DNA of 62,871 bases, counting the filler. It is 6 parts of 6 records of this genome, joined end to end, with 100 filler letters (N's around TTAATTAATTAA, not from the genome) between each part and the next. Parts side by side here need not be neighbours in the genome. Positions count along the whole stretch, not along the records: positions 46,189 to 58,928 come from SRR20825010_4738; 5 more parts are not named here. The stretch is one strand, 5' to 3'. Position 1 is the first letter of the stretch. Each line of letters begins with the position of its first letter. Below are positions 46,189 to 58,928 of the stretch, one piece after another. The position numbers and the translations under genes are program-made. The notes under the pieces are model-generated. The model ran no database searches. It had not been told where the DNA came from and saw only the letters and a list, made by a program, of their open reading frames with translations.

Positions 46189-46189
46189 A

Positions 46190-46840
46190 CAGCAACTGTG
46201 CCCCGCAAGTGACCGCATGTGCATTACCAGGCACTGGCTGGACTTCGGTATTGAGCAAGGTCGACAAGGCAGTGGTGGTTTCAGCCTGCATGGCTACATG
46301 GACCGATACCCCGACTTACAAAATGCATTCGGCCAGGAAAATTATGAAGCCGGCATTGATCATTGGTTCGACAACGGCGAAGACGAAGGCCGCAACACCG
46401 CTGCAACCATTGCAGGCAACGGGCCTGTTTCCGGACCTGCCCGTGTAGGCGGCGGTGGGGGGGGTGCCTGGAGCGACATGGCCACCTGTAAAAACCAGCA
46501 AGTGACAGGCTTCCGGATTGGTGCAGGCCGCCTTGTTGACCGCGTACAGTTCAAATACCCCAGCGGTTGGGCGCCCCGCCAAGGTGGAGGAAATGGCTGG
46601 AATGCGGATGTGAATTTGCCCGACGGCCAATATATTGTGCGGGTTGATTACCGCAACGGCAGCATGGTCGACCAGGTTAGCTTTACCACCAACACCGGTG
46701 TGAAGTACGGCCCCTATGGCGGCGGTGGCGGTAGCCCAGGTACTTACTTGGTAACCCCAGGCCAGAAATTGGGCTGTATGCGCGGTCGGGCAGGTTCATC
46801 CATGGACCGCCTTACATTCACCTCCACAGGGCCACGTTAA
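46190..46840 (+). CDS. repeat protein with C-terminal jacalin-like lectin domain, 5' truncated
   Basis: Frame open from the contig edge. Two HW...G..(Q/E)GR repeats, then GGGGG.AWSD..VDRVQF.Y..VDQVSFTTNTG..YGPYGG.GG..GRAG..MDRL.F (beta-prism I pattern). Confidence 0.8.
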   Translation, partial: QQLCPASDRMCITRHWLDFGIEQGRQGSGGFSLHGYMDRYPDLQNAFGQENYEAGIDHWFDNGEDEGRNTAATIAGNGPVSGPARVGGGGGGAWSDMATCKNQQVTGFRIGAGRLVDRVQFKYPSGWAPRQGGGNGWNADVNLPDGQYIVRVDYRNGSMVDQVSFTTNTGVKYGPYGGGGGSPGTYLVTPGQKLGCMRGRAGSSMDRLTFTSTGPR

Positions 46841-46843
46841 ACC

Positions 46844-48730
46844 ATGAATACATTCATTCAAAAAGCACGCCTTGGCAAATTGGCGGCGGCTGTGGCACTG
46901 GCAGTGTGCATTGAGCAACCCGTACAGGCTGCACAAGAAAATACGGCACAATCTTTCGTGGACATGGTGAAAGAAGTGCCGCTGGTACCCGCCAACATGC
47001 GCGATTCAGAAATGCTGGTGAAGGTCACTGAGGCGGTTAAGTACATCAAACGCCTTGAATTGCCCCAAGCGCACTTTGCCGTAAACGAAGCTTTGCAGCT
47101 GGACCCACGCAATTCGCACTTGCATTTTTTGAATGGTTTTGTGTACCACCTGCAAGCCCGCCAGGGCGACACGCAAAAAGGCGAAATGGCTTTGGAGGGC
47201 TATGAGCAAGCCCTGCGCATCGACCCCAGCAACTGGATTGCGCAAGAATTTCTGGGCCTCGCCCACATGGATTTGAAACAGTTTGACAAAGCCAAACTGG
47301 CCTTCTCGGAAGTGCTGCTGCTAACGCCAGAAAGTGCGGTGTCTATTTATGGTTTGATGGTGGCTTCATACGTAACAGGCGACGCAAAAACCGCCTGCGC
47401 CATGGCCACACAGTTCAGAAAAGTATCCACTGGCTTGTCGCACGGATTCATTCGATCAAGCATTGCAGTGTATGCCTCGTGTGCAGATTTCGAACGTGCC
47501 GGCATTATGCGGGAGGTGTTGAAGGAATTGAACAATGAAGGCCCCGAAGTGGAACGGGCCGACCGCCGTGTTGCGCAGTGGAAGAGCTTCTACAGCAAAC
47601 CTGCTGCATACAGGCAAGGCGGCGAACAACTGGCACAGGCCTTCGACATGCCAGCAGTGCCCTACCCCACGCCACCAGCGGCTGTCGCAACGCCCACAAC
47701 CCCGGAAACTGTTGAAGTTACAACCGCAGTTGCGCCTGTTGCCACGGAAGCCGGCAACGGCCCGCGCATGTTGTTGATTGATGTGGTGTTGTTGTCTACC
47801 CAGGAATTGATTTCAACGTCCAAGGGCGTGAACCTGCTAAACGCACTAACCCTGCAACTGGGCAATGTGGCCGGCAATGTGGCAGCTTATGCACGTGTGA
47901 ACAATTCTACGGTGACCAACGGCGGCGCAGCCGATGTAAGCACCGCCATTACCCGCGCGGTGACCATTCCGGCATTGTCATATTCGCTGAACATAGCCAA
48001 TGCCAACAGTTCACTGAACGAAGTGCTGGCCCGCCCCACACTGGCAGCCATTGAAGGCTTGCCCTCGGAATTTTTCTCGGGAACGAATTTGAGTGCCGGT
48101 TTTGTTTCAACCAGCGTGCAAGGCGGCACTACCGTGGTGCCACTGGAAAAACGCATTGGCATCAAGCTGGCCGTTACACCAGTGTTTTTGCCGCAAGGCC
48201 GAATACAACTGAAAGTTGAAGCGCAGCGCACCAACCTGAACGCCACCACCGAAAACCCGCGCGTGGCCTACCAAATTGAAATAGGCGAAACCACTGCGAA
48301 CGCCAATGTGGTGATGAACCTTGGCGACACACTGGTGTTAAGTGGTTTGAGCGAAAAATCAAGCGCCAGCAACCGCGACGGTGTACCGGGTCTGCAAGAC
48401 GTACCGGGTTTGCAATACCTGTTTTCAAACAAAAGAACCAACGAACTTCAACGCTCGGTGCTGATACTGGTCACCCCCCGTTCGCCTGTACAAATTGCAA
48501 GCGCTGCGCAAAGTGAAAGCGAATCCGTGGACAGCCGCATGAAAATGCTGCGCGACAAGTTTGGATTTTCAAACAGCATGCCGGGCAATATTGAAGCGGT
48601 AATGACTCAGCTTGATTCGAATGACTTCTTCCGCGAATTCAGGCAAGGCGATGTGTCGATGGAGCGTTGGGAACGGATGAGAACGACTGGTGACCGGCTA
48701 AAGGAAGCGCTGGAGTTTTTGTACTACTAG
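46844..48730 (+). CDS. TPR-repeat protein fused to a type II/III secretin core domain
   Basis: Signal peptide, TPRs (EALQLDPRNS, YEQALRIDPSNW), Pro/Thr linker, then EVLARPTL...G....FFSG, GIKLAVTP, LGDTLVLSGL, GVPGLQDVPGLQYLFS, LILVTPR. Confidence 0.85.
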   Translation: MNTFIQKARLGKLAAAVALAVCIEQPVQAAQENTAQSFVDMVKEVPLVPANMRDSEMLVKVTEAVKYIKRLELPQAHFAVNEALQLDPRNSHLHFLNGFVYHLQARQGDTQKGEMALEGYEQALRIDPSNWIAQEFLGLAHMDLKQFDKAKLAFSEVLLLTPESAVSIYGLMVASYVTGDAKTACAMATQFRKVSTGLSHGFIRSSIAVYASCADFERAGIMREVLKELNNEGPEVERADRRVAQWKSFYSKPAAYRQGGEQLAQAFDMPAVPYPTPPAAVATPTTPETVEVTTAVAPVATEAGNGPRMLLIDVVLLSTQELISTSKGVNLLNALTLQLGNVAGNVAAYARVNNSTVTNGGAADVSTAITRAVTIPALSYSLNIANANSSLNEVLARPTLAAIEGLPSEFFSGTNLSAGFVSTSVQGGTTVVPLEKRIGIKLAVTPVFLPQGRIQLKVEAQRTNLNATTENPRVAYQIEIGETTANANVVMNLGDTLVLSGLSEKSSASNRDGVPGLQDVPGLQYLFSNKRTNELQRSVLILVTPRSPVQIASAAQSESESVDSRMKMLRDKFGFSNSMPGNIEAVMTQLDSNDFFREFRQGDVSMERWERMRTTGDRLKEALEFLYY

Positions 48731-49359
48731 AAAAGCCATGGCTCAAGCTTGCGGCGTTTCATTTCGTAGGCTTCTATGCGGTCGATATTACCCAAGGTAA
48801 TGTCGATGTCGTCGAGCCCCTGGATCAAACGTGATTTGTAATACGGATCGATGTCGAAGTGATGCTGAGCATCGTCTTCCAGAATCAATTGCTGTGGCAA
48901 ATCTATGGTCAAATAATAGCCCTCGCGTTCCTGTGTCTTGGCCATGATCTGCTTGAGCAAATCCGCAGGCAGGTGAATCGGCAAAATACCGTTCTTGAAG
49001 CAGTTTGCGTAAAAAATTTCAGCAAAACTTGGGGCAACAATGGCGCGAATACCGTAATCGTCTAACGCCCAAACAGCATGTTCACGGCTGGAACCACAGC
49101 CAAAATTATCTTGCGCAATCAATATTTGCGCACCCTTGTAGCGGGCCTGGTTCAAGCTGAACCCTGGGTTTTTCTGCCGCTCGTGTTCCTCAATACCTGG
49201 ATAACCTTTGTCCAGGTATCGCCATTCATCAAACAGGTAACGGCCAAAACCAGTGCGGTCCACCATCTTGATGTATTGCTTGGGAATAAGCGCATCCGTG
49301 TCAACATTTGAACGGTCCACAGGAACCACCAGGCTGTGCAGTGAAGTAAATGGTTTCAT
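48727..49359 (-). CDS. leuD: LeuD-like (isopropylmalate isomerase family) small subunit
   Basis: NVDTDALIPKQ, NFGCGSSREHAVWAL, SFAEIF..N..KNG.LP, GLDDI..TL. Confidence 0.92.
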   Translation of the reverse strand: MKPFTSLHSLVVPVDRSNVDTDALIPKQYIKMVDRTGFGRYLFDEWRYLDKGYPGIEEHERQKNPGFSLNQARYKGAQILIAQDNFGCGSSREHAVWALDDYGIRAIVAPSFAEIFYANCFKNGILPIHLPADLLKQIMAKTQEREGYYLTIDLPQQLILEDDAQHHFDIDPYYKSRLIQGLDDIDITLGNIDRIEAYEMKRRKLEPWLF

Positions 49360-49372
49360 CGCGCTCCCCGTT

Positions 49373-50801
49373 TCAATGCAAATCCAGAATTGTTACATCC
49401 ACAAAATGGCCATACACTGCGGCAGCAGCAGCCATCGCCGGGCTGACCAAATGGCTTCTGCCACCCGCGCCTTGCCTGCCTTCGAAATTCCTGTTTGAAG
49501 TAGACGCACAACGCTCGCCAGGCAGAAGGTGGTCTTCATTCATGCCCAAGCACATGGAGCAACCGGGCTCGCGCCACTCGAAGCCCGCATCCAGAAACAC
49601 GCGGTGCAAGCCCTCCGCTTCTGCCTGTGCCTTCACAAGGCCCGAACCCGGAACAGCCAAAGCCTGCACAATGCCGGGGTGAACCTTGCGCCCTTTCAAA
49701 ACGCGTGCGGCCAGCCGAAGGTCTTCAATGCGCGAATTCGTACACGAACCAATAAACACTTTGTCCAGCCACAAATCGGTCAACTTCGTGCCCGGCTTAA
49801 TGTCCATGTATTGCAATGCAGCTGCCGAGGCCTGTCGTTTCACAGGGTCACTGATTTCATCCAGCAATGGTACTGATGCGATTACATCGGCCACCATTTC
49901 CGGCGAGGTGCCCCAGGTCACCATGGGGCGCACCGTGGCGGCATCCACGTGCACCACGCGGTCAAACTTCGCGCCGGGGTCTGAATGCAATGTACGCCAA
50001 TAGGTCACTGCCTTCTTCCACATTTCGCCAGCAGGCGCGTAAGGGCGGCCTTTCAAATAATCGATGGTGGTTTCATCCACCGCCACCAAACCGACCCGCG
50101 CACCCGCTTCAATGGCCATGTTGCACAGGGTCATGCGGGCTTCCATACTTAAATTGCGCACCGTACTGCCAGCGAATTCAATTGCAAAACCAGTGCCACC
50201 CGCCGTACCAATTTTTCCGATCAGCGACAACACCAAATCTTTTGCAGTCACCATGCCGGGAAGCTGGCCTTCGATATTGACCAGCATTGCACGCATTTTC
50301 GGCACAGCCAGGCACTGGGTGGCCAACACATACATGTTCCACTTCCGAAGTACCCACACCAAAAGCGAGTGCCGCGAAAGCACCATGCGTGCAGGTGTGC
50401 GAATCACCAGCCACCACCGTCATTCCGGGCAATGTGGCACCCTGCTCCGGGCCGATCACATGGATGATGCCCTGGCGCTTGTCTTTCAAATCGAACAGCG
50501 TAATTCCAAATTCGTCGCAGTTGCGTTCAAGCTGCGCAACCTGTGCGCGGGAAAACGCATCAGCAATGCCAAGCGTGCGACCCACAGTGGGCACATTGTG
50601 ATCTGCGGTGGCCAGTACGGTGCTGGGGCGATGCGGCTTTCGATGTTGCAGCCGCATGCTTTCAAACGCCTGAGGGCTGGTTACTTCGTAAACCAGGTGG
50701 CGGTCCACGTACAACAGGTTGGGGCCACCTTCCTGGCCTTTGGGGGGTGGCATCACCAAGTGGCGATCCCACAGCTTCTCAAGAAGAGTTTTTGCCTGCA
50801 T
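49373..50801 (-). pseudogene. leuC: LeuC-like large subunit split by a frameshift (4-bp duplication at 50328-50335)
   Basis: The 5' frame ends [21 protein letters not shown] and the 3' frame resumes [30 protein letters not shown]. Removing one ACAT restores EVEHVLATQ. Confidence 0.85.
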
Positions 50802-50812
50802 GTTTACACCTG

Positions 50813-51766
50813 CTATGCAATGCGTTGCCTGGGCACGTGCCGCAGGTGGCTCGCGGTTTGGCCACCGGGCAAGCTGGCGATCAAATCAGCCGCCTCAAGC
50901 AATCGGTTCAAATCAATACCACACTGAATGTTTGCACCGTTCAAGGCATACACAAGGTCTTCAGTGGCAGTGTTGCCCGTGGCACCCGGCGCGAAGGGGC
51001 AACCACCCAAACCTGCGGCGGAAGCATCCAGCACAGTGGCGCCATGTTGAATTGCAAACAATGCATTGGCCACGCCCATGCCATACGTGTCGTGCCCATG
51101 AAAAGCCCAGACAATGCCCGACTTGCCATGCACCCGTTGAAGATTCAGAAAATAATCGGCCACCTGCAAAGGCGTTGCCCGCCCGGTGGTGTCGCAAAAG
51201 GCCACCTCCAGGTTGATCCCATGCGTCAACTTGAGCGCCTTGTCCAGCACGGCTGACACCTGCTGCCAACTGACCAGTCCGTCGTAGGGACAATCAAAAC
51301 TGGTACCCAAGTCCAAGCGCATGGTTGGGCGCAATTCACCAGCATGCTCGCGCACGCGTTGTGCAATATTGGCCAAGCCATCCAGCGACGCGTCTACCGA
51401 TTGGCGCACGTTTTTCTGGTTGTGCGCTTCCGAAACCGACACCACGTACACCAGCTCATTCACGCCCGCTTCCAGCGCATTGTCTGCGCCCCGCAAATTG
51501 GGTACCAATGCCGACAAACGCAAACCGGGCACATTGCAGAATTGCTTGAACAACTCTGCTGTGTCGGCCATCTGCGGAATGGCTTTCGGGCTTACAAACG
51601 ATCCAATCTCAATGCGTTTTACACCTGCATGAATCAATGCCTCAATACACCGGGCTTTGTCCGCCGTGGGCAAAGGGTTTGAAATCGATTGAAAGCCATC
51701 ACGTGGCGCTACTTCAACAATTTCAACCTCACTTACTTTTCGAACTACGCTGGATATTTCACTCAT
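50813..51766 (-). CDS. HMG-CoA lyase family enzyme (DRE-TIM)
   Basis: [59 protein letters not shown]. Start set at ATG 51766 with GAGG RBS. Confidence 0.92.
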
Positions 51767-51813
51767 TGAACAACACCTCTTGCACATCACCAAATTCAGC
51801 TGCAGCAACCGAA

Positions 51814-52308
51814 TCAGGTTTTCAATAACTTTTTGACATCCGCAAGCAAATCGACCAGAAACTGCAAACCCAATGCGCCAAACCCTACGGGAAGAATTGC
51901 AAAGGGAATGACCATGGGCGTTCCAAAATCGCTGGACACGCGCTCGCCAAACTCCAAAGCCTGCGACGCCATGATGAAACCGCGCCACACCATGATGCTG
52001 CAAAATAACAAACCAAATGCACTGGTCAGAACGCCAACAACGGCTTTGCCCCTGTCGGAGCAACTTTCAGGAAACAAGTCGATTCGAATGTGGGCTTGGG
52101 CGCGTTGCGCTTCAGCCGCTCCCATCACAGCCATGTACACAATCAGGAATGAATTGATTTCCAGGCTCCAGCTTGTGGGGGCAGAAAACAAATATCGCAT
52201 TACGGTGTCGTAGAAAATGCTGAGCATCATGAACAACAACACCGCAATCGATGTGCCCCGAAGCAAGGCATGCATGCCCCGCCAGGCAGTAAGTGTGAGC
52301 GAGCTCAT
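51814..52308 (-). CDS. dctQ: TRAP transporter small permease
   Basis: VMRYLF..PTSWS.E...HIRID; four TM helices. Confidence 0.9.
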   Translation of the reverse strand: MSSLTLTAWRGMHALLRGTSIAVLLFMMLSIFYDTVMRYLFSAPTSWSLEINSFLIVYMAVMGAAEAQRAQAHIRIDLFPESCSDRGKAVVGVLTSAFGLLFCSIMVWRGFIMASQALEFGERVSSDFGTPMVIPFAILPVGFGALGLQFLVDLLADVKKLLKT

Positions 52309-52325
52309 TGAATCACCTGCTCCCT

Positions 52326-53369
52326 TTAAGCCTTGCCCAGGGCCAGGGCAATGGCGCGGCTACCCAGCTCTTCGCCCACTTGTTTTTTCCACTCGTCCCA
52401 AACAGCCACAGCCGCAGCGTCAAACTTTTTCATGTCATCCGCGCTGGGTTCAATCACTTGCACACCCGCCTGTTGCACCTTGGGCCAGTGCTGCTTGGGG
52501 TACACATTCTGGTTGGCGTTTTTGGCGAAGTTGGCCTCGTACCATGCGCTTGCACTTTCCAGCGCAGCCTTGGCATCGGGGTTTAGTTTGTCCCAACGGT
52601 CGCGCAACATGAACGGGCAAATTGCATAACCGGTGGTCGGAATTTTCAGACAGTAGGCCAGTTGTTCCTGCAGGCTTCGACCCACCACTGTGGAAATGTT
52701 GAATACACCGGCATCCACTGTGCCACGCTGCAAAGCGAGATAGGTTTCAGACGACGGCACACGCACAGCGGAAGACTTGAACGTGGCCAAAGCCTGCGTT
52801 GCTTCAAAGCCCACCACCCGCACTTTCTTGCCTTGCAGGTCTGCCAGCGAACGGATTGGATTGGCCTTGGTACTCCAGATGAATTCTGGTTCAAACAATC
52901 CACCACCCGCGCTTAGCATGTACAGGTTTTCTTTGGCCAACTGGGCATTAATCAATTCAAACAAGGGGCTGCCCTTGGCCAGCCGCTCGGGGTGTGCATA
53001 CAACTCGCCCACAATACCGGGCAAACCCGTGATGCCCAACACAGGCACCGACCGCGTAATGTACGACACAGTGTGAAACATCAAATCAACTGACCGCGAA
53101 CGCAGTGCCGGCAGTTGTTCATCGGCTTTCACCAACTGGCTGGCCGGGTAGTAATCGATCTCTACCTTGCCGCCACTGTTTTTCTTCACCAAGCTGACAA
53201 AACCGTCCGGGCCGTAACTAAGGTCGCCATAAGACGGCGGAATGTAATACACCCCTGTCAGCTTGGTGGCAGCCATTGCCTGCTGGGGCATAAAGCTGCC
53301 TGCACCGGTCACCGCGAGTGCGGCGGCGCCCACTCCAAATTTCAGCGTTTCTCTGCGCTTTGTATCCAT
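52326..53369 (-). CDS. dctP: TRAP transporter substrate-binding protein, Tat signal
   Basis: KRRETLK signal, SGGKV.IDYYPA.QL, DLQGKKVRV, ETYLALQRGTVD. Confidence 0.9.
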   Translation of the reverse strand: MDTKRRETLKFGVGAAALAVTGAGSFMPQQAMAATKLTGVYYIPPSYGDLSYGPDGFVSLVKKNSGGKVEIDYYPASQLVKADEQLPALRSRSVDLMFHTVSYITRSVPVLGITGLPGIVGELYAHPERLAKGSPLFELINAQLAKENLYMLSAGGGLFEPEFIWSTKANPIRSLADLQGKKVRVVGFEATQALATFKSSAVRVPSSETYLALQRGTVDAGVFNISTVVGRSLQEQLAYCLKIPTTGYAICPFMLRDRWDKLNPDAKAALESASAWYEANFAKNANQNVYPKQHWPKVQQAGVQVIEPSADDMKKFDAAAVAVWDEWKKQVGEELGSRAIALALGKA

Positions 53370-53412
53370 GATGTCTCTCTCCTTCCTTGTGGTTATTGTC
53401 AGGTGCCGGGTG

Positions 53413-54705
53413 TCATATCAAACCGGGCAGCCACAAACTAAGCTGCGGGAACAATACAAACACCATCAACACCAAAAATTGCACCATCACGAACGGGATG
53501 GCACTGCGGATGATTTCCTCGATCCGCAAATCCGGGCATACCCCGCGAAGGGCATACAAGTTCAGCCCCACCGGCGGGGTAACTACAGCAATCTCCAAAT
53601 TCAAAACCATAACAATGCCGAACCACAACGGGTCGTAGCCCAGCGCAACAATGACAGGCAACAAAATAGGCGTGGTCACCACGATCAGCGACACCGCATC
53701 CACCAACATACCCAACAAAACCAGCAACAACATGATGCCCAGCAAGATGGCCCAACCAGGCATTTGCGAACCCACCAGCAAATCGGTAAGGGCTTGCGGC
53801 ACACGCACCATATTCAGGTAATCACCGAAAATTTTTGCAGCGCCCATGATGAGAAGAATGGCACCGCTGACACGCGCTGACGAAGCAAGTATGTCAATGA
53901 ATTTTCGCCAGGTCAGCATGCGGAAAATTGCCCCTGCGATGAACAAAGCACCCATTGCACCAATGCCGGCGGCTTCACTGGGGGTGGCCATGCCTGAATA
54001 GATGGAACCCAGCACAATCAACACAAGAAGCGCGGAATGCCAAATGTTGCCAAGGCTTTCAAAGCGTTCGGCCCAAGTGTATTTGGTGTGATCCGGTGGA
54101 GCTTCGTGTGGGTTGGCCAACACGCGCAGGTAAATGTAAAGCGACAGTGCCAGGGCAAGCACAATGCCGGGAATAATGCCGCCGATAAAAAGATCGCCCA
54201 CCGACACACCGGAAACCGCGCCATAAATGATGAAGGGCACACTGGGCGGAATCAACATGGCCAACGCGCCTGCAGTAACCACCGAACCAGCGGCCAGGCG
54301 GCGGCTGTAACCGCGTTCCAGCATTTGCGGCACGGCAATTGAACCAATCGCTGCAACACCGGCAATGCTTACGCCTGACACCGCACCAAACATGGCCGAT
54401 GCACCCACAGAGGAAATGGCAAGGCTTCCGCGCAACCAGTTCAACCACCGCGTGGCGGCAATAAACAGGCTACTGCCCACCGGTGTGGCCGACAGCAAAT
54501 TACCCATCAACACAAACAGTGGCAGCGCAATCAATTCAAAGCTGTTGAGCTGCCCGAACAGGGAAGACGGCGCAAAGAAAAACGCCAGTGAACCTTTGGC
54601 CATGTAAAAGCCAAGCAAGCCAGATAAACCCAAGGATAGAAAAATCGGAAAGCCGATTCCGATCATTACCAGCAACACAACCAACACGACAATGGGTTCA
54701 AACAT
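53413..54705 (-). CDS. dctM: TRAP transporter large permease
   Basis: ALPLFVLMG, LIPPS..FIIYG, ATPSEAA, TPPVGLNLY. Confidence 0.93.
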   Translation of the reverse strand: MFEPIVVLVVLLVMIGIGFPIFLSLGLSGLLGFYMAKGSLAFFFAPSSLFGQLNSFELIALPLFVLMGNLLSATPVGSSLFIAATRWLNWLRGSLAISSVGASAMFGAVSGVSIAGVAAIGSIAVPQMLERGYSRRLAAGSVVTAGALAMLIPPSVPFIIYGAVSGVSVGDLFIGGIIPGIVLALALSLYIYLRVLANPHEAPPDHTKYTWAERFESLGNIWHSALLVLIVLGSIYSGMATPSEAAGIGAMGALFIAGAIFRMLTWRKFIDILASSARVSGAILLIMGAAKIFGDYLNMVRVPQALTDLLVGSQMPGWAILLGIMLLLVLLGMLVDAVSLIVVTTPILLPVIVALGYDPLWFGIVMVLNLEIAVVTPPVGLNLYALRGVCPDLRIEEIIRSAIPFVMVQFLVLMVFVLFPQLSLWLPGLI

Positions 54706-54718
54706 CTCGATGCGCCGT

Positions 54719-55942
54719 TTAAATAACGCCTGCTATGCGCAGGGTTTCAATTTCAGAGGAACTCATGCCGAGCCATTGCTGTAACGCATGATCAGTATTT
54801 GCTCCCAGTGCAGGCCCCGCACTGCGAACCTTGCCTGGCGACCTGGACAAACGCGGAAACACGTTTTGCATGGGAATGATTTGCCCCTGTTCATCTTCAA
54901 CATTCACGATAGACTGGCGGGCGCGGAAGTGTTCGTCGTCCAGCATTTCTGGGGCGCTGTAGATCAAACCGCATGGAACACCCGCAGCCGCGAGCAAATC
55001 CACAATTTGTTTGGCCGGCAGGGTGCGGGTCCAAGTGGCCACAATTGCATCCAGTTCGGCTTGATTGTCGCCACGTGTGCGGTGCGAAAAAAAACGGGGA
55101 TCGTGCGCCAAACCAGCCTGCCCCATGACTTCGCATAAGCGGGAAAACACAGTGTCCTGATTTGCACCAATCACCACATCGCGACCATCGCTTGCAGGGT
55201 ATGCATTCGAAGGGGCAATACCGGGCAGGAAGCTTCCGCTGCGTTCGCGGACTTTGCCAGCCAGCACGTAATCGGGAATGATGCTTTCCATCATGCCAAA
55301 CACCGATTCAAAAATACTGCTGTCCACCACCTGGCCACGGTCAGTTCGTGAACGGTCATGCAACGCCATCATGGTGCCCAAGGCCGCATGCAAACCAGCC
55401 AAGGTATCGCCCAGCGAAATACCCACACGCACCGGCGGCCGGTCAGGGTAGCCCGACACGTAACGCAAACCGCCCATGGCTTCACACACCGAGGCGTACC
55501 CGGCGCGTTGGGAATAAGGGCCGTCTTGCCCGAACCCGGTGACGCGCACCATGACCAGTTTTGGATTGATTTCAGAAAGGGCCTGGTAACCAAGGCCCCA
55601 TTTTTCGAGTGTGCCAGGACGGAAGTTTTCGATCAACACATCGACATGCCTGATCAACTTGCGCAGCACATTCTGGCCCGCTTCCTTGCGAAGATCGAGC
55701 GTCATTGACCGCTTGTTGCGGGCAATCACATTCCACCAGATGGGTTTGCCGCTGGGGTCGCTTTGTCCCCATTGGCGCATGGCATCGCCCTTGCCAGGGG
55801 GTTCAATTTTCAGAACGTCGGCGCCGAAATCTGCCAGCACCTGCCCACAATAGGGGCCTGCAATCAGCTGACCCAGTTCAATGACTTTGATGTCCGAAAG
55901 CGGCAATCCGGACGCTGTGTTGGTGGTTTCCAAGGGCAGCAA
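54719..55942 (-). CDS. class III CoA-transferase (CaiB/BaiF family)
   Basis: ELGQLIAGP..LADFGADV.KIEPP..GD.MR, RNKRS..LDLR, ENFRPGTLEKWGL, GFGQDGPY, catalytic Asp in LGDTLAG. TTG start at 55942 or 55933. Confidence 0.93.
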   Translation of the reverse strand: MLPLETTNTASGLPLSDIKVIELGQLIAGPYCGQVLADFGADVLKIEPPGKGDAMRQWGQSDPSGKPIWWNVIARNKRSMTLDLRKEAGQNVLRKLIRHVDVLIENFRPGTLEKWGLGYQALSEINPKLVMVRVTGFGQDGPYSQRAGYASVCEAMGGLRYVSGYPDRPPVRVGISLGDTLAGLHAALGTMMALHDRSRTDRGQVVDSSIFESVFGMMESIIPDYVLAGKVRERSGSFLPGIAPSNAYPASDGRDVVIGANQDTVFSRLCEVMGQAGLAHDPRFFSHRTRGDNQAELDAIVATWTRTLPAKQIVDLLAAAGVPCGLIYSAPEMLDDEHFRARQSIVNVEDEQGQIIPMQNVFPRLSRSPGKVRSAGPALGANTDHALQQWLGMSSSEIETLRIAGVI

Positions 55943-55973
55943 CCTTTTTATTTATTGAACGATTTTTTGCAAT

Positions 55974-56047
55974 ATCGCATACAATTTTTAAAAAGAAAAC
56001 CCTTAATGCTCATTTTTTAAGCATTTTTTAGGAAAGTTGCATACAAT
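55974..56047. promoter_or_regulatory. two candidate GntR/FadR-type operator sites
   Basis: ATCGCATACAAT (55974-55985) and GTTGCATACAAT (56036-56047), near-palindromes of TTGTATACAA, in the AT-rich gap upstream of the CoA-transferase. Confidence 0.55.
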
Positions 56048-56056
56048 CGTGCCGAT

Positions 56057-56743
56057 TTACCCTTCGTCAGAAAACTGTGTGTGCAGTTCACGCGCGGCCA
56101 GCAAATGGGTACGCATCATGCATTCGGCCCAGGCCGAATTTCGGGCCTCCAGTGCTTGCAGAATCTCTGCATGGTGTTGCATGCTGCGCTGCAAATGTTC
56201 GCGCTTGTACTGCCCCATGTTCCGCCGAATCACTGAATTCGGAACGATGTTGGACAACAGTTGGCTTAACCGCTGATTGCCGCTGGATTCAATCAACATG
56301 CGGTGAAATTCGTGGTTGAGCTTGGACACCTCGTTGCGAACATCCACATCTTGCGGCATATCACGCACCAATGTTTCCATCTGCGTTGCAAGCTGCTTAA
56401 GGTGCTGCAGTTGCACCGCATCAATGTGCTGACAGGCTGCTGCAACGGCAAGGGGTTCCAGCACAAGTCGAATTTCAAATACCTCGCATGCGTCGCGGTG
56501 TGTCCATTCAACCACCCGGGCACCCGCGTGTGGAATTGCCTCTAGCCACCCCTCCGAAATTAATTCTCGCAACGCCTCTCGAACCGGGGTACGGCTTATC
56601 TTCAGTTCCGCAGCCACTGCCGACTCGCGAATGTATTCATGCGGCTGGTACGCACCCTCAAGAATCCGCTCGCGGATCAGCTCGTAAGCATCGGCCGCCG
56701 CTGTTTTACGTTCGCTGGGTGTGGTGTCGTGGATAACCTTCAT
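56057..56743 (-). CDS. GntR family regulator with FCD domain
   Basis: AYELIRERIL.G...E..VA.EL.ISRTPVREAL..L..EG, IRLVLE, NHEFH, HH..I..A. ATG at 56743. Confidence 0.93.
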   Translation of the reverse strand: MKVIHDTTPSERKTAAADAYELIRERILEGAYQPHEYIRESAVAAELKISRTPVREALRELISEGWLEAIPHAGARVVEWTHRDACEVFEIRLVLEPLAVAAACQHIDAVQLQHLKQLATQMETLVRDMPQDVDVRNEVSKLNHEFHRMLIESSGNQRLSQLLSNIVPNSVIRRNMGQYKREHLQRSMQHHAEILQALEARNSAWAECMMRTHLLAARELHTQFSDEG

Positions 56744-56836
56744 TGGCCTGTTGTTCGGAATGGGTGATAAACAGTGCAATCGTGTACCACTGCACTTTCT
56801 TTGGCAAGAACTGCGTACTCCGCAGATTCGGGATTT

Positions 56837-58177
56837 TCACAGCTTCTCTCTGGAACCTGATAAACGCCGGGCTTGAACACGCAAACCTTCAAAAATTGGC
56901 GCAGCAACACTTTGAGGGAAACCTGTGGGCAGGTTTGTGTTGACTGAATTGATCACATCGGGTGTTTTCTTCAAAATGTCCTGTATTGCATCTTCGAAAT
57001 CGAGCCCCATTGCATTGCGCTTGGCCACTACATTCCAATGGCGGCGCTGAATGCTCTGCATGCGGTAATGAGCATTCTTGGATCGCAACGCCATGGCCAT
57101 TTTCACCTTCTGCCATTGAAACTGATTTGCGCCTTTTCCAATGACAGGCCAAGCCGACAATACATCGTACAACGGGGTCAGTGAAAACTGCCCACCCGGC
57201 AACAGGTGGATGCTGAAGTTCTTGGCATGACCATCGGGCGCAGCCAACATCCAGAACAAAAGCTGTGCGCTTAAAAAAGTATGTCGATCTTGTTCTGCAT
57301 TCTCGCTGCCACGCAGTTTACCAAGAATTTGATCAATACCTGGGCCACCTTTCTCCTCGTATTTCCGGGCCGATGGGACACCGAAAACCTGGCAAAAGTC
57401 TTCTTGCGGCAAACGCGCAATCCAGTTGCCCGTGGTCCATTTGCGATCGAAACGTTCAACGACCAGAACCTTGTGACGACCAAACCAGGCAATCTCGCAA
57501 TTCGCAACCGGCAAGCCATACGCGCGAAGAATATGCGCACACAACCACTCGTTCTCGACCGATGTTGAAAAGTCTGCGCGCGATGCACCCACCTCCCCCA
57601 TGGGCAGCTTCAGTATGTGGGTTGTCGGTGTGGCCCCCAAGGGCATGTGCCAACGCCCATCAAGGCGCAGCAACGCTGTTTTTTCCTGCGCACCGGCAAG
57701 CGATATTCTTAGCTCGTCTTCTTGTGGTGCACCAAAGCTGCCTTGCGCAACAGTTGTATCCAGAAGCGCCTCAATTTCAACTTCAGTAAGGGGCCGGCTT
57801 CGAACTTTCCTCACGTTTGGCTGCGGGCTACCTGCAGGCAGCAATTGCACTGCACCCACACAATCACGCCCTACTTTCTCCAGCAGATCAAACGCGTCTG
57901 TTGACGCTGCGCCATAGCGACTTGCCACCCGGCTACGAATGTCCAGGCTATCGGGCAGCAAGTTCTCAAAATAGGCGCTTACATTGGGGCCAGATTCGCC
58001 ACGTATACCGACAGTAAAAGGCAAAGACAATGAAATGGGACGACCCGCACGGTTGCCGAGCCAGGCTGCGTCGTAGATAAACTGTTGCACGCCTGCAGCC
58101 GTGATGCGCCATTGCCCCACAGGCTCAGCATTCATCCACACATCCAGGGCACGGGTTTTTGATGGACGGCCTGCCAT
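56837..58177 (-). CDS. hipA: HipA family toxin kinase
   Basis: YFENLLPD..IR..VGRDCVGA, P-loop ISLAGAQEK, PTTHILK, VERFDR, QEDFCQ, DGHAKNFS, PLYDV. Its ATG overlaps the hipB stop (TAATG). Confidence 0.96.
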   Translation of the reverse strand: MAGRPSKTRALDVWMNAEPVGQWRITAAGVQQFIYDAAWLGNRAGRPISLSLPFTVGIRGESGPNVSAYFENLLPDSLDIRSRVASRYGAASTDAFDLLEKVGRDCVGAVQLLPAGSPQPNVRKVRSRPLTEVEIEALLDTTVAQGSFGAPQEDELRISLAGAQEKTALLRLDGRWHMPLGATPTTHILKLPMGEVGASRADFSTSVENEWLCAHILRAYGLPVANCEIAWFGRHKVLVVERFDRKWTTGNWIARLPQEDFCQVFGVPSARKYEEKGGPGIDQILGKLRGSENAEQDRHTFLSAQLLFWMLAAPDGHAKNFSIHLLPGGQFSLTPLYDVLSAWPVIGKGANQFQWQKVKMAMALRSKNAHYRMQSIQRRHWNVVAKRNAMGLDFEDAIQDILKKTPDVINSVNTNLPTGFPQSVAAPIFEGLRVQARRLSGSREKL

Positions 58178-58437
58178 TACCACTCGCTCGCGGAGTTGGG
58201 GAATTTTTTGCTGCCTGCCGTGGGCTTTGCTTCTACAGTGAGCGTGGCATTCAACGCCATCAATACAGTGAGTATTTGATCGAGCGTGACGGTTTCCGGA
58301 TGATTTTCAATGCGGGAAATGCGTTCTTGCGACAAACCAATTTTCATGCCCAGTGCGGCTTGCGACAACCCTTGCTGTGCCCGCATGTGCTTTAGGAAAG
58401 GGCTAAGTTGCCCTGAAGTGGTGATACTGGTTTTCAT
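58177..58437 (-). CDS. hipB: HipB-like XRE HTH antitoxin
   Basis: LK..R...GLSQAALG..IGLSQERISRIE..P..VTLDQI; coupled to hipA. Confidence 0.92.
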   Translation of the reverse strand: MKTSITTSGQLSPFLKHMRAQQGLSQAALGMKIGLSQERISRIENHPETVTLDQILTVLMALNATLTVEAKPTAGSKKFPNSASEW

Positions 58438-58458
58438 GATTGCACCTAGCCAATAGTT

Positions 58459-58530
58459 TATGCTGCTTAGAGAATAAATTAATTATATGCCTTTAAACAA
58501 ATAAATAACATATATTCTTTATTGAGCATA
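58459..58530. promoter_or_regulatory. three HipB-type operators at 27-bp period
   Basis: TATGC-N8-GAATA (58459), TATGC-N8-AAATA (58486), TATTC-N8-GCATA (58513); compare E. coli TATCC-N8-GGATA. Confidence 0.75.
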
Positions 58531-58630
58531 ATTAGGCCACCCAGGGTGATGGGCTGAACATCCCTCGATTTGTTGAATTGCAAGGCCTGCGAAATACTTG
58601 CAGCTTCAGATGCAAACGACGGGAAATACA

Positions 58631-58928
58631 ATGGCAGCAAGAATGCTGGTTGATGGCCGGGCGCAGGTTGTGGTGGGCGACACCACCAGCCACGGCGGCA
58701 AAGTGATTTCAGGCAGCCCCACCACGTTTTTTGGTCCAGGCAACATTCCAATTGCGCGGGTAGGCGACATGACCACCTGCCCCATTTGCAAGCCCCACGT
58801 ATTCCCGATCGTCGAAGGCCATGCCCTCATGACCGACAACCACATGCAAGTGGCCTTGCATGGCCACAAAACAGCCTGTGGTGCCACCTTGATTGCATCG
58901 GCAACCCCAGCGCCGCCTGCCCCACCCA
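58631..58928 (+). CDS. PAAR domain protein with Pro-rich C-terminal extension, truncated
   Basis: GDTTSHGGKVISGS, PIARVGD...CP.C, IVEG, VALHGHKTACGATLIAS, then PAPPAPP. Confidence 0.9.

Follow-up and report, generated by a model that had tools for sequence, protein, structure and literature searches.

The window, i.e. the whole stretch of 62 871 nt of DNA analysed here, consists of contigs chained by N spacers, with GC content varying among contigs from 0.44 to 0.64. The contig spanning positions 46189–58928 carries a gene for a 628-aa protein in which TPRs and a secretin barrel are joined in one chain (hereafter TPR-secretin). The features of the locus are listed in Table 1.

Table 1. Features at the TPR-secretin locus (positions in the window)
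Feature	Position	Strand	Evidence
Artificial inter-contig spacer, N runs around TTAATTAATTAA	46089–46188	.	Genes on the left unrelated
Partner gene, 3′ end (last 216 codons, cut by contig edge)	46189–46840	+	Pfam, identity
Jacalin-like beta-prism lectin domain of partner	~46445–46813	+	Pfam Jacalin, E 9.7e-13
TPR-secretin gene, 628 aa	46844–48730	+	ORF, Pfam, AlphaFold2
Sec-type signal peptide	46844–46933	+	By eye: basic N-region, Ala/Leu core, AxA at ~28–30
TPR superhelix, residues 56–251, ~five TPRs	47009–47596	+	Pfam and AlphaFold2 model
Pro/Ala/Thr-rich disordered linker where N0–N3 would be	47597–47764	+	pLDDT, alignment
Secretin beta-barrel core, residues 308–546, nearest to Tad RcpA	47765–48481	+	Pfam, PDB matches, tree
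Helical C-terminal tail, ending in FLYY (48716–48727)	48482–48727	+	Alignment
leuD-like gene, convergent, local neighbour outside the module	48727–49359	−	ORF; flanks differ among homologous loci

The first-pass annotation assumed that a contig break hid any partner gene of the secretin. In fact, the same contig carries the last part of a gene for a jacalin lectin, whose stop codon is 3 bp upstream of the ATG of the TPR-secretin gene. At the other end, the stop codon of TPR-secretin overlaps by 4 bp (48727–48730) with that of the convergent, putatively leuD-like gene, as noted earlier. The adjacent leuC-like gene (49373–50801, minus strand) is split into two overlapping ORFs of 344 aa and 207 aa, while its counterpart at homologous locus L002 is a single 476-aa ORF; judging by these sequences, the split is due to a frameshift or an assembly error. 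Locus L002 has the same downstream genes as the window; scans of L002 for promoters and terminators gave results no better than chance.

Architecture of the TPR-secretin and its lectin partner

The TPRs, the Pro/Thr/Ala linker, the secretin core and the helical tail, all proposed in the first-pass annotation, were confirmed by Pfam, AlphaFold2 and alignment; the signal peptide, also proposed there, was read by eye. The Pfam Secretin model (PF00263) matched residues 388–546 with E-value 1.7e-27 and 96.5 bits (cut-off 27.5), and the Pfam TPR matches fell within residues 74–164; the models of Secretin_N, BON and T2SS-T3SS_pil_N produced no match at E ≤ 1. Foldseek matched chains of GspD/InvG.

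An AlphaFold2 monomer model (pTM 0.49) was built from an alignment of 127 sequences. Its TPR helices (residues 56–251) have pLDDT of ~90, most of residues 255–303 have pLDDT below 50 and the helical tail (562–627) has pLDDT of 50–66; pLDDT is modest in both the barrel and the tail. The first barrel strand begins at residue 308, therefore there is no space for an N3 domain. Among the 127 relatives the linker varies from 48 to 96 aa, with 21% Ala and 15.5% Pro, and its mean identity is 29%, compared with 74% in the TPR region, 83% in the barrel and 79% in tail residues 581–628. A linker that is disordered, variable in length and Ala/Pro-rich indicates that N3 is absent rather than just diverged. 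The N-terminal domains of RcpA are also absent (Pfam scan and AlphaFold2). Thus, the earlier statement that canonical N-domains are missing holds, and the standard N3 domain named as a check was found neither in the model nor by the HMM scan.

In a VIA structural comparison the TPR domain matched PilW with Z 17.1 (rmsd 4.5 over 199 aligned positions) and MamA equally well (17.4); TadD gave 13.8. Likeness of the superhelix to pilotins is generic, with MamA and designed TPRs scoring equally high.

Of 7995 candidates that were scored, 685 were homologs of TPR-secretin at E ≤ 1e-3. Among the matches listed the nearest relative was a Limnobacter protein (96% identity), and annotations of family members were ‘CpaC’, ‘GspD’ or ‘secretion protein’. 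Cultured isolates with relatives include Limnobacter, Herminiimonas and Paucimonas.

The partner fragment in the window comprises the last aromatic repeat unit and the jacalin-like domain; it is 85% identical to residues 693–908 of partner P0123 and 90% identical to the L002 partner. Complete partners are 750–960 aa long and include a signal peptide, a 500-aa beta-sheet domain, a long Ala/Lys helix, a basic patch, aromatic WD(Y/F)Y repeats and, in some of them, a jacalin tip; the helix takes 92–158 aa between conserved anchors (112 of 138 rows). The structure model of the partner is confident (mean pLDDT 84), and its sole clear structural match is the jacalin domain, which aligns to ZG16 with Z 20.7 (rmsd 2.4, 139 aligned), i.e. 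has a beta-prism I fold. Griffithsin was the top match of this domain in two further comparisons. Partner P0002 has three GG loops and three G-x3-D motifs, which bear on its putative sugar binding. In the reading favoured below, the window's partner is likely a glycan adhesin.

The partner N-domain (residues 32–530) matched no family in Pfam or NCBIfam. Its only other similarities were to unnamed Atlas clusters (0.87) and DUF6603 (0.79); the best structural Z was 7.9 (porins, with rmsd of 18–20) for the domain modelled within the whole partner rather than alone. This beta-sheet domain recurs in distant, almost Pfam-free proteins having other C-terminal halves (P0261, P0265–P0269, P0271, P0276, P0279, P0288, P0330, P0341 and P0390). 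The WD(Y/F)Y...HW...G..EGR repeat (P0123, residues 636–765) is matched by thousands of proteins, yet has no Pfam model: the P0123 profile had 12 972 matches at E ≤ 1e-3, and the majority of the matches listed fell on this repeat. It also terminates unrelated partners, e.g. the one at L225:11207–12949. Protein P0251, with a TPR region joined to a partner C-half, was considered as a fusion clue and rejected as a deletion or assembly chimera.

Relationship to RcpA and TadD

By sequence, the best PDB secretin match of the barrel is RcpA. The family barrel HMMs ranked three RcpA rows well over PilQ, GspD and SctC: three of four RcpA rows scored 81–86 bits (the fourth 56) versus 51–54 bits for PilQ and GspD. 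Models of the established classes matched TPR-secretin far under their cut-offs, with 53 bits against 351 for GspD (TIGR02517), 76 against 284 for PilQ (TIGR02515) and 42.5 against 238 for SctC (TIGR02516); the same was true for the MshL model.

Three trees set the family next to RcpA. In the tree with deep members the family formed its own clade (100/99), sister to four RcpA rows (97/94); with 14 reference rows from few genomes, and pIV and RhcC2 not among them, this thinly sampled tree speaks for a sister placement. Grouping of the family with PilQ was rejected (p-AU 0.005 in an earlier tree, 0.008 with deep members), as were groupings with SctC (0.019 and 0.037, respectively) and with MshL (0.038, tree with deep members). 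Grouping with GspD was rejected in the earlier tree (p 0.005) but not in the deeper one (p-AU 0.068). The first-pass annotation would have counted placement within the GspD, PilQ, RcpA or SctC clades against a distinct type of channel; the family stands outside PilQ and SctC, but its position as sister to RcpA comes near to such a placement.

A lipobox is present in ~20 of 47 deeper members (16 by pattern, one of them likely false, and 5 by eye). The pattern was found in 1 of 127 close relatives, and TPR-secretin of the window has no canonical lipobox. The close clade keeps Cys22 (LAVC), which approximately aligns with the lipobox Cys of the deeper members and is followed by the AxA site; Cys22 is possibly a vestige of a switch from lipoprotein to SPI.

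The C-terminal end is conserved as well. The last four residues are FLYY, FLFY, FLYF, FLFF or FIFY, i.e. F[LI][YF][YF], in 117 of 132 distinct copies; FLYY was counted in 103 of 127 close relatives, an undercount as 14 alignment rows are one residue short. When the model is compared with p67phox, CTR9/PAF1 and TadD, the structural alignments continue from the TPR into residues 602–628, which suggests that the model packs the tail, a low-confidence region, on the TPR. The aligned end of p67phox presumably sits in the p67phox TPR groove. Covariation within the secretin (237 rows, Neff 69) was powerless here, with TPR–tail pairs making 5 of the top 100 versus a 12% background.

Among the closest known systems is the Tad pair RcpA and TadD (PDB 8odn), with RcpA being, as said, both the best PDB match and the tree sister. 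According to PMC10499894, TadD is a TPR lipoprotein holding the last four RcpA residues in its groove, and formation of the ring needs TadD. Our family, for its part, has a conserved aromatic tip of four residues. Also, TadD is a lipoprotein pilotin and the deeper family members are predicted lipoproteins, whereas the window's clade has no lipobox. The differences are evident: RcpA and TadD are two proteins, while here the TPR and the barrel are in one chain with no RcpA N-domain; RcpA has a coil S-domain, while TPR-secretin has a long helical tail; and Tad includes the Flp pilin, TadA/B/C and CpaB, while the family has Tad genes nearby at 1 of 157 loci only.

Such components were re-used before. 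As described in PMC4311626, rhizobial T3SS co-opted the RcpA-type secretin RhcC2 and the TadD-like TPR protein Y4yS, so that, like here, an RcpA-derived secretin and a TadD-like TPR serve outside Tad; unlike here, they are encoded by separate genes in a full T3SS cluster where RhcC1 gives the N-terminal domains. Fusion of a TPR to a secretin is known too, in a different family: in PMC4960237 the Akkermansia Amuc_1098 ‘PilQ’ has an N-terminal TPR region likened to a built-in pilotin, with the secretin C-terminal to it in one chain, as in TPR-secretin. Amuc_1098 has 907 aa and was assigned to type IV pili, unlike the 628-aa TPR-secretin, which scored 24.3 bits, over the barrel end only, with the Amuc_1098 model NF042912 (cut-off 750). 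That a secretin may have an N-terminal TPR region was thus already on record, which counts in part against the interpretation in the first-pass annotation.

The RcpA-sister barrel and the lipobox of the deeper members make it likely, on sequence grounds, that TPR-secretin arose by fusion of a TadD-type pilotin to RcpA. Taken together with the aromatic tip, the tail alignments and the TadD–RcpA binding reported in PMC10499894, they point, indirectly, to a pilotin–secretin fusion that may be self-piloting.

Gene pairing and exchangeable neighbours

The secretin is paired with a 750–960 aa signal-peptide partner at 48 of 58 genome loci. The partner N-domain adjoins the secretin at 43 loci; at two further loci the partner C-part is at the contig edge, and at three more the partner is on an adjoining contig (directly at L107 and L108, by inference at L109). 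The other 10 loci include three with a different signal-peptide partner (L028, L052 and L039), three with a BON lipoprotein, one with a putatively phospholipase-A-like neighbour, and three that stop at a contig edge. At locus L040 the secretin has no partner.

In one subclade a small single-BON lipoprotein-like gene is located upstream of the secretin (L023, L029, L030, L036, L043 and L152); the lectin is present at L036 and L043 and absent from the rest. Search for the lectin in three genomes with BON-lipoprotein-only secretin copies gave no match. At L029 the intact gene is preceded by a second copy of the secretin C-terminal tail (1479–1757), perhaps left over from a duplication or produced by misassembly.

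A deeper circle of relatives was reached by profile searches: of 400 further genomes from the order 8 had a member, as did 8 of 400 further genomes from elsewhere in the phylum Pseudomonadota; 469 metagenome stretches had family matches, of which 80 were kept. The TPR, linker, barrel and tail are common to all deeper members. No family relatives were found in viral contigs, and none in PLSDB plasmids at E ≤ 1e-30.

We then counted types of genes within 3.5 kb of the secretin at 157 loci, equal to 132 distinct copies at 95%. The counts are given as ranges because neighbour typing errs in both directions: the loose filter over-calls a few and the strict filter mislabels L014, L016, L027 and L155. 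A lectin of the window type was observed next to 59–63 of the 132 copies, pentapeptide-repeat and/or TAXI proteins next to 33–35, other lectin-like proteins (tectonin, jacalin and Gly-rich type) next to 14–15, and a BON lipoprotein as the only neighbour in four; 15–22 copies, mostly at contig edges, had no recognised partner. Ricin-B and acanthaporin-like signal-peptide proteins adjoin other members. In a quick tree of 79 rows, which included one in three lectin-type rows and was rooted at the midpoint only, the window-type clade (support 100) nests among pentapeptide/TAXI lineages with one change of neighbour state, the pentapeptide/TAXI arrangement being deeper. Across the family, different proteins can occupy the partner slot.

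The pentapeptide partners (L192:9921–10766 and relatives) have a conserved CxxCDLRY after the signal peptide and a C-terminal Cys; in several cases a TAXI or another binding domain is part of the same chain. At L235 (3–8756, minus strand) the gene after a deep lipobox member encodes a signal-peptide protein of at least 2918 aa.

Could the pairing reflect co-regulation or co-transfer of cell-surface genes, with the secretin not handling its neighbours at all? In favour of this, the partners are exchangeable, and among 66 copies with full flanks 4–5 have no recognisable partner and three more have a BON neighbour only. However, the pairing is kept in both gene orders, with different flanking genes, across 40–96% identity and with spacing down to 3 bp; the partner was present in 2 of 401 genomes of the order Burkholderiales, both also carrying the secretin, and in none of the secretin-free genomes among the 401. 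We consider mere linkage improbable.

Another explanation is that the neighbours are structural subunits: the partner N-domain, or in deeper lineages the pentapeptide protein, would stand in for the N domains as a ring or plug in the periplasm, and the complex would let through something else, such as polymer, or small solutes that TAXI/periplasmic binding proteins then take over. It agrees with the pentapeptide proteins (~280 aa) flanking 30 of 132 copies, TAXI proteins flanking 25 and both flanking 21, as well as with the dicarboxylate symporters and other transporters near deeper members. There is also a parallel in cyanobacterial PilQ: PMC12475490, which assigns secretins to slime secretion, describes a 30 kDa pentapeptide protein, NIES39_A07680, that co-purifies with the PilQ ring and fits its lower ring. 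The association seen there resembles that of our 30 copies, known in our case by gene neighbourhood; but the cyanobacterial system is PilQ, the partner in the window's clade is a lectin and the pentapeptide likeness is at the level of repeats. Given that the partner in the window's clade has an extracellular-type lectin tip, that one secretin may have two or three tandem partner paralogs (L009, L019, L024, L026, L036 and L108), with a partner also in trans (a second copy away from the secretin in genome G001), and that unrelated lectin folds replace the partner in other lineages, we regard the structural-subunit explanation as unlikely.

Tandem partners and the extra copy in G001 fit what is expected for cargo. 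In two-partner secretion (TpsB/TpsA, type Vb) a gene for an outer-membrane transporter is located beside gene(s) for a Sec-exported, beta-rich, adhesin-like protein; TpsB is an Omp85 barrel with POTRA domains. The gene pairing here is similar, but the transporter is a multimeric secretin, not Omp85, and the TPS domain was looked for in the partner and not found.

Proposed export with or without a dedicated machine

Genes of the Gsp, Pil, Tad or Sct type were found near 1 of the 157 loci, and gsp genes near none, with queries taken from two genomes and with many metagenome loci being short. The homologs are therefore situated outside T2SS, T4P, Tad and T3SS operons, in line with the first-pass annotation. 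The exception is a lone copy at L048 (2548–8412), where the contig ends on the upstream side, beside a Tad operon (cpaB, rcpA, cpaF and tadC) having its own RcpA.

TPR-secretin could also be an accessory cargo-specific secretin that borrows a pilus or T2SS platform encoded elsewhere in the genome, with the TPR as an adaptor. A GspF/PilC/TadB-type platform protein was present in 49 of 49 carrier genomes tested, which counts against machine independence; the same protein was present in 13 of 14 controls, and near-universal presence makes it weak evidence. Of 45 carriers, 36 gave a PilM match. The apparent lack of PilM in Limnobacter was rejected, as a divergent pilMNOPQ operon is present; Limnobacter PilM is too divergent for TIGR01175 at 1e-30 (G001, G003, G006 and G007), and these genomes have ~7 secretins each (PilQ, GspD, RcpA, SctC, MshL-like and others). 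T2SSK matches in Herminiimonas, in frames of 784–1067 aa, were not accepted as GspK. The RcpA/TadD pair re-used as RhcC2/Y4yS (PMC4311626) is a precedent for such borrowing.

On the other hand, GspL was not found in 10 of 45 carriers. In five GspL-free carriers the secretins were PilQ-like, RcpA-like (three of five) and the family secretin only; hence T2SS is not required, and the carriers do not all share a T2SS or a Tad system. Inspection of pilMNOPQ, T2SS and Tad loci showed that these have secretins of their own. According to PMC8134430, the N0 domain is the contact with GspC, and its absence argues against ordinary docking of TPR-secretin. Borrowing of a platform appears rather unlikely; for the window, T2SS and pilus content was judged from close relatives. 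The minimal, poorly described channel suggested in the first-pass annotation fares accordingly: the two-gene module exists, but a platform gene is present elsewhere in all carriers tested.

We favour, tentatively and a little short of thinking it probable, that TPR-secretin is a dedicated outer-membrane pore that exports or displays the neighbouring partner without an inner-membrane machine of its own. Fusion of a TadD-type TPR lipoprotein pilotin with an RcpA-type barrel would have come first, followed by loss of the lipid anchor in the window's clade. The TPR may bind the conserved FLYY tail, its own or that of the next subunit, and this contact may chaperone ring assembly, replacing N3 and a separate pilotin; N3 is reported as necessary for GspD pore assembly (PMC8134430), so the TPR–tail contact would have to substitute for it. 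The partner would pass the inner membrane via Sec and fold in the periplasm. The folded partner, which TPR-secretin may bind, would traverse the pore or remain threaded in it; the long helix and the basic patch would lead the way outward for the aromatic repeats and the jacalin domain, and the displayed jacalin domain would adhere to glycans. Among the points against this reading, no energy source or gate-opening step was found for a stand-alone pore, and the pentapeptide-repeat and TAXI solute-binding neighbours look periplasmic.

A broader proposal, that the self-piloting family constitutes a ‘two-partner secretin’ pathway, in which a single TPR-secretin gene serves to export or anchor folded lectins and other exoproteins brought by Sec, with no pseudopilus, ATPase or platform and with repeated cargo swaps across Pseudomonadota, is more doubtful still, though possible. 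No description of the TPR-secretin family or its modules was found in open-licence PMC/bioRxiv texts; large secretin phylogenies may contain unnamed members.

Secretins are commonly regarded as needing N-domains, mostly a separate pilotin, and an energised inner-membrane machine. The TPR-secretin family lacks N0–N3, has a pilotin-like domain on the same chain as the barrel and is accompanied by varying exoprotein genes. It raises the questions of whether a ring forms without N3, what would open the gate if there is no piston and whether a secretin by itself can transport a protein of 80–100 kDa in folded form. If the export reading is true, the family would add a minimal route to the known ways of secretion and provide a compact tool for surface display; if not, it is still an unannotated, mislabelled family, probably derived from RcpA.
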